NCBI GenBank assembly: GCA_902511005.1
Contig: CABXDN010000006.1
Coordinates: forward strand, 7,846 to 71,845
Length of the DNA stretch: 64,000 bases
Source of the DNA: an uncultured Candidatus Poseidoniales archaeon
Lineage (GTDB): Archaea; Thermoplasmatota; Poseidoniia; Poseidoniales; Thalassarchaeaceae
Direction of reading: 5' to 3'
Of the stretch, positions 8,628 through 16,967 are shown piece after piece. Each line of letters begins with the position of its first letter. Position 1 is the stretch's first letter. The position numbers and the translations under genes were made by a program. The notes under the pieces are model-generated. The model was not told the origin of the DNA. It made no database searches and saw nothing but the letters and a program-made list of their open reading frames with translations.

Positions 8628-8647
8628 AATTTAGGTGAGCCTAAATT
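8628..8647. promoter_or_regulatory. palindromic operator candidate AATTTAGG-TGAG-CCTAAATT (site 1)
   Basis: Perfect 8+8 inverted repeat in the divergent intergenic region between the 6562..8580 (-) and 8706..10355 (+) genes. The core TTTAGG-N4-CCTAAA recurs at 8673, 12745 and 16952. Confidence 0.55.
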
Positions 8648-8672
8648 TGATATACTCCATCCTACTCCGAAG

Positions 8673-8688
8673 TTTAGGGCGACCTAAA
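8673..8688. promoter_or_regulatory. palindromic operator candidate TTTAGG-GCGA-CCTAAA (site 2)
   Basis: Ends 17 nt upstream of the ATG at 8706. Same core as the other three sites. Confidence 0.55.
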
Positions 8689-8705
8689 GATACGGAGATA
8701 GAAAT

Positions 8706-10355
8706 ATGAAAAATAATAAAATAATTGCTATAATGATGACATTAAGTATGTTAGCCGCAGCTTTTGCTGGCTGTTTATCAGACGATACTGATAATAACTT
8801 TGACGAAGTAGATGGCGGATATGAATATGCTTCAAATGTTGATAATCACAGAATGCTAGTTGAAGATGTTTGTGATATCAAAGATCTAGCGGAAGCGCAT
8901 GACTGGGATGGAGTAAAAGACATCTACATGAATGGTAAGCACGCAGAAAAGAATGACGGTTCATACAGAACATTACAAGGATTTGCAGATGCTACAGGTA
9001 AGCAACATGGATTAGATACCTTTTACGGCACCGATTCGCCTTTAGATGACTATTTGATGTCAGCACTAGATGGAACCGGTATGTTTGCAGGTGCATCAGA
9101 TAGTGTTCGAGAGCAAGCTGTTGAGAAAGGGGTTCAAAATCAGATTATGGTTGCATATGCAATACATGAATTAAATGCGGCTATTAACAAAGCAGCAGCG
9201 GGGAACTTCGGTACCGATGATGCACAACACGCATGGGACGAAGGTTGGGCATTTTATCATGGTCTAGATGAGTATGCTTCATGCTCTCCATATGCTACTG
9301 GAGACAAGAGAGCAGGTAACTATGCAACTGCAAATGCAGATGGTACTGCTGTAGCAAATGCAGCAATTCTTCAAGCAATGAATGATGGTCTTACAGCTCT
9401 AAAAGCTGAAGATCTTGAAGGAGCAACTGCTGCAAGAGACGATATTGTTAAGAATTTAGTAATAATTTACTCTCAAGCAACAATTCGTTATGCTCACAAG
9501 ATGAACACTGATGATACTATCGAAAAAGCTCAAACACACCAAGCAGAGGGATATTCTTTCTGGAGAGTAATTGAAAAATACATTGCTGAAGCGAATCCAT
9601 CACCAGGTGACGATTGCTACAACGGCGTTACAATGACTGTTAGTGCAGCAGCAGCAGATGAATGTGCGGGATACATGTACATGACTGATTACGATATGGG
9701 TGACGGTTCAGATATCTGTTACAATATGAATACTCACACTGTCTCAGCAGATACTGACGAGAATTCTTGTCTTGGATACATGTTTTTAGAGAATTATGGT
9801 GAACAAACTTACACAGGTTGTTACAACAGTGCATCTCATGATATGAACAGTTCTTGGAATCAATCAATTTGCGAGTCATGGGATTACTATGATAATGCTT
9901 CATGGGGTTCCACTACTTTCACTGGATGCTACAACATGGTGTCTCATGAAACATCAAGCGATGATAATGCTACATGTATATCATACATGTGGGTTGAAGA
10001 TTATGTAACAGTTGCTGGACAAGACGGTTGCTACAACAGTGTGTCTCACTCATGGGATACAGCAGTAGATCAGACTACATGTGAATCTTATGGTTGGTAT
10101 GTAAATTATGGTGCTACTATATTTACTGGATGTTACAACATGGTATCTCATACAACTGATACAGATATGACTGAAGCAGAGTGTAGTGCTTTTACGCACT
10201 TCGATGTTTTCGGAACAACTGGAATTAATGGAATCTACGATTTCAATAATGTTCCAGTAGCAGGTACTGATTATCAGGCTGCTGTCCGTGCACATCTCCA
10301 ACCTGCTTGGGATATGCTCGGAATTACAGCTGAAGATATTGGAACACTCCAATAA
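8706..10355 (+). CDS. lipoprotein: helical N-terminal domain (QHAWDEGWAFYHG motif) plus six C-terminal Cys/His repeats (CYN-x2-[ST]H-x8-9-C-x-[SG]Y)
   Basis: Lipobox-like FAGC followed by an acidic linker. Six roughly 33-36-aa repeats start at Cys304 (nt 9615). Family unverified; an FEA1/ISIP2a-like or DUF4856-like iron-associated domain is only a guess. Confidence 0.6.
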   Translation: MKNNKIIAIMMTLSMLAAAFAGCLSDDTDNNFDEVDGGYEYASNVDNHRMLVEDVCDIKDLAEAHDWDGVKDIYMNGKHAEKNDGSYRTLQGFADATGKQHGLDTFYGTDSPLDDYLMSALDGTGMFAGASDSVREQAVEKGVQNQIMVAYAIHELNAAINKAAAGNFGTDDAQHAWDEGWAFYHGLDEYASCSPYATGDKRAGNYATANADGTAVANAAILQAMNDGLTALKAEDLEGATAARDDIVKNLVIIYSQATIRYAHKMNTDDTIEKAQTHQAEGYSFWRVIEKYIAEANPSPGDDCYNGVTMTVSAAAADECAGYMYMTDYDMGDGSDICYNMNTHTVSADTDENSCLGYMFLENYGEQTYTGCYNSASHDMNSSWNQSICESWDYYDNASWGSTTFTGCYNMVSHETSSDDNATCISYMWVEDYVTVAGQDGCYNSVSHSWDTAVDQTTCESYGWYVNYGATIFTGCYNMVSHTTDTDMTEAECSAFTHFDVFGTTGINGIYDFNNVPVAGTDYQAAVRAHLQPAWDMLGITAEDIGTLQ

Positions 10356-10367
10356 ATAAATTAACGA

Positions 10368-14627: not shown

Positions 14628-14637
14628 TAGTTTTTAA

Positions 14638-15831
14638 TTACTCAATTAGTACTATATCACCAGTCCAATGAAAAATTAATACTTCATCAGCAATTCCTCT
14701 ACCAAAACCGACAATCATTCCACCACTTGAACCGACATAGTTTTCTTTCCATCTCCCGTCATCAGTTTCTTTCAATAACCAAATCTCCCCACTGCAAAAA
14801 TCTCCATATAAATATCCATTTTGTAGTGATTCCGGCCCCCAATCCATCCAAAATCCTCCTGTGATTGAACAATTCCCATTTTCATGACCATAAGCAACAA
14901 CTGGGGAAGTCAGGTCATCATCACTATGGTCATCATGGTCATCTTCTTCATAACAATCTCCATCCTTGTCAAAATATTGGAAACCTTCTTTTAATGACCA
15001 ACCAAGATTCTTTCTTTCAAACAATGGAACTAAATTTATTTCTTCCCAACAATTTTGTCCAACATCTCCAATCCAGATCATATTATCTTCGCCAAGCGAA
15101 AATCTCCATGGATTTCTCAGACCATGATGTAAGATATATGGGTCATCTTCTGAGTTGTTGAGTACGGGAGAAATTTCCCCATTTTGGTATGAAAAAAAGT
15201 TTATAGTTCCAAGTGAGTTATTCCTATTTTGGCCATTATTTTCAGGGTCATTTGCGCTACCTCCGTCACCTATGCCCCAAAGATATTGATTATCTCCAAT
15301 ACTAATCAGGTGTCCTCCATTATGATTCCTGTAAGGTTGTTCTACGGATCTTAAAGGAGAAATAGTAGAAGGATCTAGTAATCCACTTTCTCCCATTTTT
15401 ATTGATGCTAATATCAAGTCTGAATCATTAGGGCCATCACAATTTCCTTCCTCTATATATGATATCAGCACTGTTTTTGAGGCATTGAAATCTTCATCGA
15501 AGGCCATTCCTAGAAGCCCCTGTTCCATGTGGCAGCGACTTACAAATGAACTTAAGTCGGCGATTTCTTCCAGCTCCTCTCCGTCCCATGACTTAACAAA
15601 ACCGTTAAGATAAATAATCCATATTTCCTCATTTTCAGGATTGGAAATTGAGTGATGTGGGGTTTCGAATCCTTCCATATACAATTTACATTCTAGATTT
15701 AAATCTAGGGATAATTCACAATTAAATTCTGTTGGTTCTGGCCATTCAAATTCGTCCTCAGAATCTGAACTAATACACCCCGTCAATCCTGAACAAAGAA
15801 TTATTAGAACAAATATAGCAAAATACTTCAT
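14638..15831 (-). CDS. PQQ-dependent sugar (glucose/sorbosone) dehydrogenase-like beta-propeller lipoprotein
   Basis: Lipobox LTGC. Motifs HNGGHLISIGDNQYLWGIGDGG and HGLRNPWRFSL are typical of the soluble GSDH family. Confidence 0.65.
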   Translation of the reverse strand: MKYFAIFVLIILCSGLTGCISSDSEDEFEWPEPTEFNCELSLDLNLECKLYMEGFETPHHSISNPENEEIWIIYLNGFVKSWDGEELEEIADLSSFVSRCHMEQGLLGMAFDEDFNASKTVLISYIEEGNCDGPNDSDLILASIKMGESGLLDPSTISPLRSVEQPYRNHNGGHLISIGDNQYLWGIGDGGSANDPENNGQNRNNSLGTINFFSYQNGEISPVLNNSEDDPYILHHGLRNPWRFSLGEDNMIWIGDVGQNCWEEINLVPLFERKNLGWSLKEGFQYFDKDGDCYEEDDHDDHSDDDLTSPVVAYGHENGNCSITGGFWMDWGPESLQNGYLYGDFCSGEIWLLKETDDGRWKENYVGSSGGMIVGFGRGIADEVLIFHWTGDIVLIE

Positions 15832-15870
15832 ATTTCCCCTCTCATTTTAAGTAACCATGTGATTTTATGT

Positions 15871-16941
15871 TTATTCAAAATAAGCCTGAATTCCAGGTAC
15901 ATTGGATATAGCTGCTGCGTAAGTCCCCAAGTGATCTTCGGAGTTAGCAACAACCATTCCATCCGTATTCAATAAGTCATTGAGGATTTCTCTTCCTTCA
16001 TCATCATCTCCAAGTTTTGCCAATCCTTCTTGAACAATAATAACGGTTTCTTCATCCATCACTTCTGAATTATACATGGCAGGGTGGCTGGGAGCTTGCC
16101 CAAATGCAGGTAACATTACATATTCATCAATATCTAAGCACCAATCGTAGCGATCTTCTCCAGTACAGTATGAATTTACTACTGAATCTTTAGCCAGTGC
16201 CACATCTCCCGTTCCATCAGATAGGCACCTAAGTGCTCCTTTGTAGGAGGAGTAAGGCGTTCCTCCCTCAGGGATACTAGAATCATCTGAGAAGAAACCA
16301 TACACTGTATCTCTTAGAGACTCAATTTCATTTTCATCACCTACAACTTCTGCATATCCATTACCTATCAAATAGCCCATAGGGATGAGCATTCCTGCAC
16401 TTTTTAGCCATCCTGTATGACAAGATTTTTTTCCTTCCATTAGTGCAAATGGATCTGTAGTGTCATCATCATCGAGGTAAGCTTCCGCCATGTCCGAGTC
16501 TGCTTTTACCCATGCAGTTGCATTGTAGTATACTCTACCATCTGCTTTCTCTTCAGCAGCCAAGACATCTAATCCGTATACTTCCCATGCTAGCCATGCC
16601 GCTGCACCATCCATGAATGCAATATCTGCGTTACCTAGTCTGACAGCTTCAATTGCAGCTCCCGAATCAGAGACTGGAAATATCTCAACATCCATTCCTG
16701 TTATGGTACTAAGTTTATCCGCTAAATGTTGTGGATTTTTATCCCAAATTAAGTACGTATCTTGAACTTCAAAAGCAACAATAAGGCAATTATCTTGATC
16801 GTCACATTCTTCATAATTAACGTCAAAAATCATGTATATAGTCCCTGCACATAGTAGAACTCCTACCATCAATATTGCCTTATTTTTTACTGCCCAGTCT
16901 GTAACCGTAGCCGCCTTCATACCTTTACCGAGTAATAACAT
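15871..16941 (-). CDS. monolobal transferrin-like substrate-binding protein (membrane-anchored)
   Basis: FMDGAAAW, VYYNATAWVKADS, GKKSCHTGWLKSAGMLIPMGYL, YKGALRCLSDGTGDVA, CLDIDEY and APSHPAMYN are all close to lobe 1 of the 10588..12687 protein and to transferrin motifs. N-terminal TM anchor. The start may be M8 at 16920. Confidence 0.78.
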   Translation of the reverse strand: MLLLGKGMKAATVTDWAVKNKAILMVGVLLCAGTIYMIFDVNYEECDDQDNCLIVAFEVQDTYLIWDKNPQHLADKLSTITGMDVEIFPVSDSGAAIEAVRLGNADIAFMDGAAAWLAWEVYGLDVLAAEEKADGRVYYNATAWVKADSDMAEAYLDDDDTTDPFALMEGKKSCHTGWLKSAGMLIPMGYLIGNGYAEVVGDENEIESLRDTVYGFFSDDSSIPEGGTPYSSYKGALRCLSDGTGDVALAKDSVVNSYCTGEDRYDWCLDIDEYVMLPAFGQAPSHPAMYNSEVMDEETVIIVQEGLAKLGDDDEGREILNDLLNTDGMVVANSEDHLGTYAAAISNVPGIQAYFE

Positions 16942-16951
16942 ACAAATAATA

Positions 16952-16967
16952 TTTAGGGTGACCTAAA
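16952..16967. promoter_or_regulatory. palindromic operator candidate TTTAGG-GTGA-CCTAAA (site 4)
   Basis: Lies 10 nt upstream of the listed start at 16941 (31 nt upstream of the alternative ATG at 16920) of the minus-strand monolobal gene. Confidence 0.55.

Follow-up and report, generated by a model that had tools for sequence, protein, structure and literature searches.

Palindromes resembling DtxR-family operators are conserved at iron-uptake island promoters across the archaeal order Poseidoniales

The subject of this study is a 16-bp palindrome, TTTAGG-N4-CCTAAA, which occurs four times in a stretch of 64,000 nucleotides (hereafter the window) from contig CABXDN010000006.1 of an uncultured Candidatus Poseidoniales archaeon, at the promoters of a gene island that encodes an FEA1-related lipoprotein (Fea1), transferrin-like proteins and an ATP-binding cassette (ABC) transporter. 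Two described systems offer the closest comparison. In Haloferax volcanii, chromatin immunoprecipitation sequencing (ChIP-seq) of the DtxR-family protein TroR yielded the motif TTTAGGC-NNN-CCTAAAANAN, which occurred, frequently in multiple copies, in each of the 32 intergenic peaks taken for motif discovery; in reporter assays either of two copies alone conferred repression of the siderophore operon that depended on TroR and iron (Martinez Pastor et al., Nucleic Acids Research (NAR) 2024; PMC10783522). The 19-bp IdeR/DtxR iron box TTAGGTTAGSCTAACCTAA consists of four CCTAA repeats, with one dimer bound to repeats 1 and 3, and a half site takes a single dimer at normal affinity (Marcos-Torres et al., NAR 2021; PMC8464063).

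The TroR motif, TTTAGGC-NNN-CCTAAA, equals the window palindrome TTTAGG-N4-CCTAAA. The siderophore (iuc) promoter of pHV3 contains TTTTAGGCCGGCCTAAAA and TTTAGGCTATCCTAAAA, the binding-protein gene beside the siderophore operon has an upstream pair of sites 36 bp apart, and four exact cores occur in 49 kb of pHV3 where 0.12 would be expected. Repeats 1 and 3, or 2 and 4, of the IdeR box read TTAGG-N4-(C/G)CTAA, and both the four window sites and 170 sites from related loci (see below) consist of inverted CCTAA pentamers 4 bp apart. Judged by its bases and spacing, the window palindrome thus appears to be the one-dimer unit of a DtxR-family box, and not merely a shorter iron box. The full 19-bp four-repeat box is not conserved: the window sites match 11–15 of the 19 positions, and the spacer, which takes the place of the inner repeats, is variable. 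This mismatch excludes the classical actinobacterial box, not the DtxR family. An initial annotation of the same DNA had pointed to a resemblance between the outer arms and the ends of the DtxR/IdeR iron box; the resemblance is in fact closer than that, since it extends to the one-dimer unit and to the TroR motif.

The likeness to Haloferax comprises the 6+6 arms, the 4-bp spacing, the multiple copies per promoter, the location at iron-uptake promoters and the position next to the TATA box, and repression under iron sufficiency has been demonstrated there. Poseidoniales differ in forming another archaeal order, uncultured and marine, in their target genes (FEA1-like and transferrin-like genes here, siderophore synthesis there) and in the distance from site to start codon, which is 0–75 nt versus about 100 nt. 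The likeness is one of motif; the candidate Poseidoniales regulator introduced below has a C-terminal FeoA/SH3-like domain, an extension that in Haloferax is reported for SirR only (PMC10783522). With IdeR/DtxR, the Poseidoniales system has in common the CCTAA pentamer unit, of which an inverted pair 4 bp apart is contacted by one dimer, and the primary metal ligands Met10, Cys102, Glu105 and His106. In contrast to the IdeR/DtxR box, two of the four pentamers are kept, so that one dimer would be expected per site and not two on opposite faces, an additional outer T/A is present (TTTAGG...CCTAAA), and the promoters are of the archaeal type, with a TATA box and B recognition element (BRE), as opposed to sigma-70. 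In a third system, that of the Archaeoglobus fulgidus DtxR homolog MDR1, several operators surround the transcription start and recruitment of the polymerase is blocked in a metal-dependent manner. The operon under MDR1 control contains its own gene and an ABC transporter; the Poseidoniales regulator, by contrast, is unlinked in most genomes.

Operator 1, the distal site of the Fea1 promoter, lies at 8630-8645 (TTTAGGTGAGCCTAAA), and its AA/TT flanks extend the arms to 8+8 (8628-8647). Operator 2, the proximal Fea1 site (8673-8688, TTTAGGGCGACCTAAA), begins 43 bp past operator 1 and lies 17 nt upstream of the Fea1 start codon at 8706; both are situated between Fea1 and a divergent gene for a 672-aa protein on the minus strand. 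Operator 3 (12745-12760, ATTAGGGTCGCCTAAA) is found 29 nt upstream of the ATG of the ABC ATPase gene at 12790, and operator 4 (16952-16967, TTTAGGGTGACCTAAA) precedes the gene of a one-lobed transferrin-like protein on the minus strand, 31 nt from the ATG at 16920. Re-reading of the window sequence gave the same coordinates as in the initial annotation, including the 8+8 arms, and the same 17–31 nt between sites and likely start codons. Its placement of operator 1 between the lipoprotein gene and the divergent gene applies to operator 2 as well, and the list of open reading frames (ORFs) confirmed that all four copies are intergenic. The core TTAGG-N4-CCTAA has exactly these four matches in the window, so that the earlier statement that no other intergenic copy is present can be widened to exact copies of any kind. 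By chance 0.12 matches would be expected (mean of dinucleotide shuffles), and none of 100 shuffles reached four. Copies with one or two mismatches are at background level (25 observed, 29 expected), and the two near-matches inspected are both inside ORFs.

For phylogenetic footprinting, an alignment of the lipoprotein was used to find 74 loci, one genome per GTDB species and covering both families of the order, which were taken with flanks of at most 10 kb; together with the window they amount to 1.17 Mb of DNA. This set contains 170 exact copies of the core, where about 2 would be expected, and 163 of them are outside ORFs although non-ORF sequence makes up about 6% of the DNA (binomial P ~1e-183). 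Sorted by downstream gene, 107 copies precede an Fea1 homolog, 30 the ABC ATPase gene only and 17 the one-lobed transferrin-like gene only, while 8 are lone sites shared by divergent one-lobed and ABC genes and 8 are other or unresolved cases. The same gene classes flank nearly all copies even where the gene order differs. At least one exact copy is present in 66 of the 70 Fea1 promoters for which sequence is available, in both families, and 37 have two; of the four promoters without a copy, at least two are artefacts of ORF calling. The conservation at orthologous promoters that the initial annotation had proposed to look for is therefore found.

A position-weight scan of the 1.17 Mb at a threshold of 12 bits or more adds just 12 weaker sites, all at island promoters: eight TTTCGG variants and one TTTAGG...CCTGAA variant at the second Fea1 position, two sites before the ABC ATPase gene and one before a 780-aa island protein. 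The initial annotation had also raised the case of a lineage-typical promoter element, as frequent before unrelated genes; essentially all exact copies, and all copies of 12 bits or more, are at island promoters. In the site matrix the outer T/A and the TTAGG and CCTAA arms are invariant or nearly so (94–99%, with the outer-position T in 94% of sites), and the 4-bp spacer and the flanking bases vary freely. The spacer of operator 1, for example, reads TGAG in the window, CTCA in locus L020 (94% Fea1 identity) and GGAA in L001. Invariant arms around a free spacer are the signature of a protein-binding site, and the four palindromes are real, order-wide conserved sites that mark the promoters of the iron-uptake island.

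In view of these patterns it is extremely improbable that the palindrome is non-regulatory, whether as a BRE/TATA variant typical of core promoters, as a hairpin or terminator at the RNA level or as a repeat dispersed in the genome. The CCTAAA arm does occupy the BRE position beside a TATA-like box, yet the motif is absent from all non-island promoters in the 1.17 Mb and can stand on either side of the TATA-like box. Likewise, a 6-bp hairpin could form, but the arms are invariant with zero compensatory changes and a free loop, most sites lie 5' of the predicted transcription start, and no Rfam family matches. The copies are without association to mobile elements, contrary to what a dispersed repeat would suggest. 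Two loci of the footprinting set, L022 and L047, carry the GTDB labels Rhodobacteraceae and Dehalococcoidia; their genes, sites and low G+C (GC) content are the same as those of Poseidoniales loci L021 and L046, and they are almost certainly mis-binned.

Metagenome contigs were also scanned with TTTAGGGNGNCCTAAA alone, a word that samples about 38% of the known sites, which gave at least 120 loci. Among the matches listed, 110 of 147 TTTAGG-N4-CCTAAA sites are intergenic, and 33 flank homologs of island proteins of the window or of neighbours of sibling islands, i.e. ferrochelatase and glycerophosphodiester phosphodiesterase (GDPD). Other genes adjoining the motif in this list encode FTR1 iron permeases (L139, L185), a ZIP transporter (L144), binding proteins on haloarchaeal-looking contigs of high GC content (L147, L169) and two DtxR-family proteins, one in the bacterial contig L099 and the other a partial ORF in L139. 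In L099, the motif overlaps the sigma-70 promoter of the DtxR-family gene itself. The remaining listed sites are on short contigs without a callable neighbour or are likely chance matches in coding DNA.

The position of the sites relative to the predicted promoter elements follows a small number of patterns. Distal and single Fea1 sites and the sites of one-lobed genes are followed after 1–4 nt by a TATA-like box, with the consensus ttTtATaaA, att.ATatAc or TtTTATCt, which puts the CCTAAA arm where TFB contacts the BRE. In the window, the predicted TATA-like box of the Fea1 promoter (8646-8655, plus strand, TTTGATATAC) is immediately 3' of operator 1 and corresponds to the consensus ttTtATaaA of 39 orthologous promoters; a second predicted box, read from the window sequence at 8616-8623 on the minus strand (ATTATATT), adjoins operator 1 on the side of the divergent 672-aa gene. 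Paired Fea1 sites have a start-to-start distance of 43–45 bp (37 pairs) or 34 bp (11 pairs), which places the second site on the predicted transcription start, with the ATG 0–3 nt after it in many orthologs. At ABC promoters, the site is found between the predicted TATA box (the CAATACCAWATAW block) and the predicted start, an arrangement of site and block that is kept in 25 distinct orthologs; the window counterpart is a conserved block at 12730-12742 on the plus strand (CAATACCAAATAG; consensus CAATaCCAtATAtgGG in 25 promoters), 5' of operator 3 and predicted to be the BRE/TATA of the ABC promoter.

For the one-lobed gene, the order in 16 of 16 orthologs is site, TtTTATCt, about 25 nt and ATG, with the ATG 32–34 nt past the site, which fits leaderless transcripts. 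The predicted TATA-like box of the window gene (16944-16951, minus strand, TATTATTT) immediately follows operator 4. The gene probably starts at the ATG at 16920 (31 nt from operator 4) and not at 16941 (10 nt), in view of the spacing in orthologs; the more distal ATG would, moreover, be located within the TATA region as predicted. Where one-lobed and ABC genes are divergent, a single site has a TATA-like box on either side, and operator 1 of the window looks alike; it probably serves the promoters of both Fea1 and the divergent 672-aa gene. Such positions are typical of archaeal repressors, and a placement that abuts or overlaps predicted TATA boxes and starts fits repression at plentiful iron. 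Occlusion of TATA/BRE or of the transcription start, as put forward in the initial annotation, stands in general and can be refined: most sites are immediately 5' of the TATA-like box, while the second Fea1 site and the ABC sites are downstream of the box, at or before the predicted start. The predicted transcription starts in the window are close to 8678, 12763 and 16920.

These data make iron-responsive repression by a DtxR-family protein, acting through one-dimer operators of the TroR/IdeR type on core promoter elements, the very likely explanation of the palindromes. We infer that iron is the signal and that control is by repression, as well as where the TATA boxes and starts lie. In the proposed mechanism, each 16-bp TTTAGG-N4-CCTAAA would offer two inverted CCTAA pentamers at the spacing for one regulator dimer, and with sufficient intracellular Fe2+ the metal-loaded dimer would occupy the sites. 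At operators 1 and 4, which lie against the upstream (BRE) side of the predicted TATA-like box, the bound dimer would exclude TFB and TBP, and at operator 1, with boxes on both sides, two divergent promoters would be shut together. At operators 2 and 3, which are past the TATA-like box and at or before the predicted start, the dimer would block RNA polymerase. Iron scarcity would then release the regulator from the DNA and lead to expression of the island, i.e. of the FEA1-like lipoprotein, the two- and one-lobed transferrin-like proteins, the ABC ATPase and permease, and probably the operon of the 672-aa gene.

A candidate regulator could be identified in related contigs. A profile of nine DtxR-family sequences, searched against the six-frame ORFs of all DNA fetched, matched only L099 and the partial ORF of L139. 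The latter is a 46-aa DtxR-family ORF divergent from FTR1, with three motif copies in between. Its homologs led to contig L200, and from there to a cluster with an intact 219-aa protein (P0273), named 'metal-dependent transcriptional regulator [Candidatus Poseidoniales archaeon]' by NCBI, with the Pfam domains Fe_dep_repress (PF01325) and Fe_dep_repr_C (PF02742) and a weak FeoA match (PF04023). Its recognition helix reads KPATVTEM. On six contigs (GC 0.38), the regulator gene is divergent from an operon of two-lobed transferrin-like gene, ABC ATPase and permease; three motif copies are present in the 130-bp intergenic gap and none elsewhere in these contigs. Three full-length outlier orthologs with 65%, 41% and 34% identity, on contigs with GC 0.42, 0.68 and 0.52, have three, one and five upstream motif copies, respectively, and the most distant of them (34%) is also divergent from a transferrin-like ABC operon, with an adjoining ZIP gene. 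These contigs suggest that the regulator acting in the window's own genome would be a DtxR-family protein. The DtxR-type, iron-box-like operator of the initial annotation is thereby supported, as the motif is identical to one with proven DtxR-family binding and a regulator of this family is encoded beside motif clusters in related contigs.

Some entries for this regulator are incomplete. In L200 (2106-2734) the gene is split into ORFs of 78 and 146 aa; relative to the intact 219-aa P0272, the reading frame shifts and a few residues are missing after GLVDY. Truncated pieces of a similar kind are found among the database entries (several of P0241-P0250), one of them ending in apparent adaptor-derived sequence. 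These are probably assembly errors.

Several observations weigh against iron-responsive repression by a DtxR-family protein. Searches of all ORFs of the window and of the 74 loci (island plus up to 10 kb on each side) by blastp and phmmer gave no DtxR- or Fur-like gene (with DtxR, IdeR, MntR and Fur queries, of which only the DtxR sequence was confirmed against the PDB), nor was a DtxR-family gene found when the window was extended by about 4–10 kb past each end. The regulator clade is narrow, with 8 representatives at E <= 1e-30 in an exhaustive search, and the island proteins on its contigs are just about 50–60% identical to those of the window. Its ancillary metal site is not conserved, and its top NCBIfam models are of the MntR (manganese) type, all far below their cut-offs. 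The bacterial L099, with Mn-type ligands, has the same DNA motif, so that the motif alone does not fix the metal. In addition, TATA-like boxes and transcription starts are sequence predictions throughout, and the island permease scores above the cut-off for PhnE, i.e. for phosphonate.

Part of these observations would agree with the same operator and a DtxR-family regulator that responds to manganese or zinc, with MntR/TroR-like sensing. We consider this unlikely. The MntR-type scores of the Poseidoniales regulator and the identical motif over the promoter of L099, whose closest solved relatives are MntR, ScaR and SloR, speak in its favour, as do the ZIP transporters that adjoin the motif. The metal ligands point the other way: the alignment shows that Met10, Cys102, Glu105 and His106 of the DtxR/IdeR primary site are kept in the Poseidoniales regulator, including the sulfur-containing Met10 and Cys102 instead of the Asp/Glu set of MntR, whereas in the Mn-type relatives (Bacillus subtilis MntR and L099) position 10 is Asp or Asn and position 102 is Glu. 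In the DtxR family, sulfur ligands go with iron selectivity. The regulon, too, has mostly iron functions (Fea1, transferrin-like proteins, FTR1, FecCD, HugZ-like protein, flavodoxin), and Haloferax TroR, which has the same motif, is iron-responsive (PMC10783522).

Binding of the palindrome by a regulator of another family, such as a 74-aa winged-helix-like protein confined to Poseidoniales, is very unlikely. This small protein is tightly linked to the ATPase–permease pair in 27 of the 74 loci, and the island flanks (up to 10 kb) of the genomes that have it gave no DtxR gene, yet it has no homolog in the window, where the four sites are intact. Its structural model, with the order helix-helix-helix-strand-strand, has the winged-helix metal regulators ZitR, AdcR and CzrA as top structural matches, albeit with weak scores (E ~0.05) and from a model of low confidence (predicted local distance difference test, pLDDT, 60). 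The motif, moreover, is a DtxR-family site base for base, spacing included, and DtxR-family genes occur beside motif clusters in four lineages (34–65% identity), one of which is labelled Poseidoniales. The gene of the 74-aa protein (L007 15723-15947, minus strand, and 26 other GTDB loci) is always convergent and directly follows the PhnE-type permease gene; its 122 database matches are all from Poseidoniales, and none has a Pfam domain or an informative name.

The genes downstream of the operators are consistent with iron-responsive control by a DtxR-family protein. Fea1 (8706-10355, plus strand) is a lipoprotein of 549 aa with a Pfam Fea1 match (E = 2.8e-25) and a score of 393 bits with the NCBIfam FEA1_rel_lipo equivalog (cut-off 250). 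Its homologs are named by NCBI as proteins of Candidatus Thalassarchaeaceae and Candidatus Poseidoniales archaeon, which places the window in Marine Group II. The Fea1 gene is followed by, and probably co-transcribed with, the gene for a two-lobed transferrin-like binding protein of the PhnD superfamily (10588-12687, plus strand, 699 aa), which has Pfam Phosphonate-bd and Transferrin matches and remains under the NCBIfam PhnD cut-offs. The ABC ATPase (12790-13740, plus strand, Pfam ABC_tran) forms an operon (12790-14627) with the PhnE-type permease (13737-14627, plus strand, Pfam BPD_transp_1), which scores 229 bits with the PhnE equivalog (cut-off 217). The one-lobed transferrin-like binding protein (15871-16920, with the ORF extending to 16941, minus strand) has Pfam Transferrin and Phosphonate-bd matches; among proteins of solved structure it is closest to ovotransferrin, lactoferrin and serotransferrin (E values as low as 1e-24), and its DGxxxW, YYxA, SCHTG and YxGA stretches align with them. 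In transferrins, these stretches hold the iron and carbonate ligands.

On the other side of operators 1 and 2, the 672-aa protein (6562-8580, minus strand), which is without a family match and adjoins the operator pair in most loci, heads a conserved trio of genes, followed by a protein with RanBP-type Zn ribbons (5704-6558, minus strand) and a tetratricopeptide repeat (TPR) protein (4643-5641, minus strand). Of the 75 sources (the window and the 74 loci), 53, 43 and 39, respectively, have these proteins together with the island. The trio has the look of an operon whose promoter is the one sharing operator 1 and, judging from its position, the divergent 672-aa gene is probably regulated by the operator pair. 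Between the permease and one-lobed genes, the family scan identified a glucose/sorbosone dehydrogenase-like protein (14638-15831, minus strand).

In some sibling genomes (L002 4396-13984; L001, L003, L024, L028, L035, L038, L053) the two-lobed transferrin-like gene after Fea1 is replaced by an alternative module, in which a surface protein of 780 aa containing CarboxypepD_reg domains is combined with a binding protein (Peripla_BP_2) and a permease (FecCD); a HugZ-like protein (PNPOx + DUF2470) and a flavodoxin are encoded nearby. Iron-linked island content therefore comprises Fea1 and the transferrin-like proteins in the window, and FecCD, Peripla_BP_2, HugZ-like protein and flavodoxin in siblings; the island is modular, yet every module is iron-related.

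A GDPD and a bacterial-type NAD-dependent glycerol-3-phosphate dehydrogenase adjoin the island (17012-18642, minus strand), the latter being a neighbour in 33 of the 74 loci. A phosphonate/phosphate regulon was considered for the PhnE-type permease, the PhnD-superfamily binding proteins and this adjoining GDPD, and was judged unlikely: the binding proteins are below the PhnD cut-offs and closest to transferrins, and the remaining regulon and the regulator point to iron.

The type of site and the mechanism are already known from Haloferax and Actinobacteria; new are the lineage, the content of the regulon and the order-wide conservation. A literature search, of incomplete coverage, found no paper describing this regulon in Poseidoniales. 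A preprint's link of DtxR orthologs to 'Marine Group II' reads 'formerly Crenarchaea' in the published version and is given no weight here. In a broader reading, which we regard as evenly balanced between true and false, the operator would define an order-wide iron-starvation regulon with a eukaryote-like capture system at its core, in which a lipoprotein of the FEA1/phytotransferrin type and true transferrin-like proteins feed a PhnCDE-type ABC transporter, and in which many promoters have a single-dimer site against the TATA box, some of these sites governing two divergent promoters together. Transcript counts of the island would in that case be a direct read-out of iron stress for highly abundant ocean archaea.

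Poseidoniales rank among the commonest archaea in surface seawater and lack cultured members, so that their regulation is known from sequence alone. The present analysis adds a simple and highly specific sequence tag for iron-responsive genes, provides a candidate regulator and connects FEA1- and transferrin-like uptake with a sensor of the DtxR family. It makes iron limitation of these marine heterotrophs testable with existing metatranscriptomes, as well as the notion of a DtxR half-site code common to Actinobacteria, haloarchaea and marine Thermoplasmatota.

Outside the archaea, Fea1 homologs of Ilumatobacter (Actinobacteria) have an IdeR-box-like site upstream (L069 6770-6790 and L070 9731-9751; contig GC 0.58–0.61), with 15 of 19 matches to the IdeR iron box in the case of L070 (gTcGGTTAGGtgAACCTAA). 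An interpretation of these two as archaeal-type sites in bacteria was rejected; they are on genuine high-GC contigs, and the site reads as an ordinary IdeR box. By their upstream sequences, FEA1-type genes thus appear to be under control of the DtxR-family type in both domains. In the broader reading above, the FEA1 gene and operator logic common to Poseidoniales and marine Actinobacteria would point to a transfer of the regulated module as a whole between domains.

A few further features of individual proteins were observed. The ABC ATPase of the window has 316 aa, compared to 235–263 aa in orthologs, and family models match it in two pieces (about 11–110 and 200–302), suggesting that about 80 aa have been inserted into the ATPase domain. 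The long forms of the lipoprotein (about 550 aa) have several Cys-rich repeats (CYNxVSH...C..Y) after the Fea1 domain, and forms of 413 aa have fewer. Finally, locus L057 (3669-6034) encodes a 773-aa fusion of an M28 peptidase and a ZIP metal transporter, with a copy of the motif 30 nt upstream.

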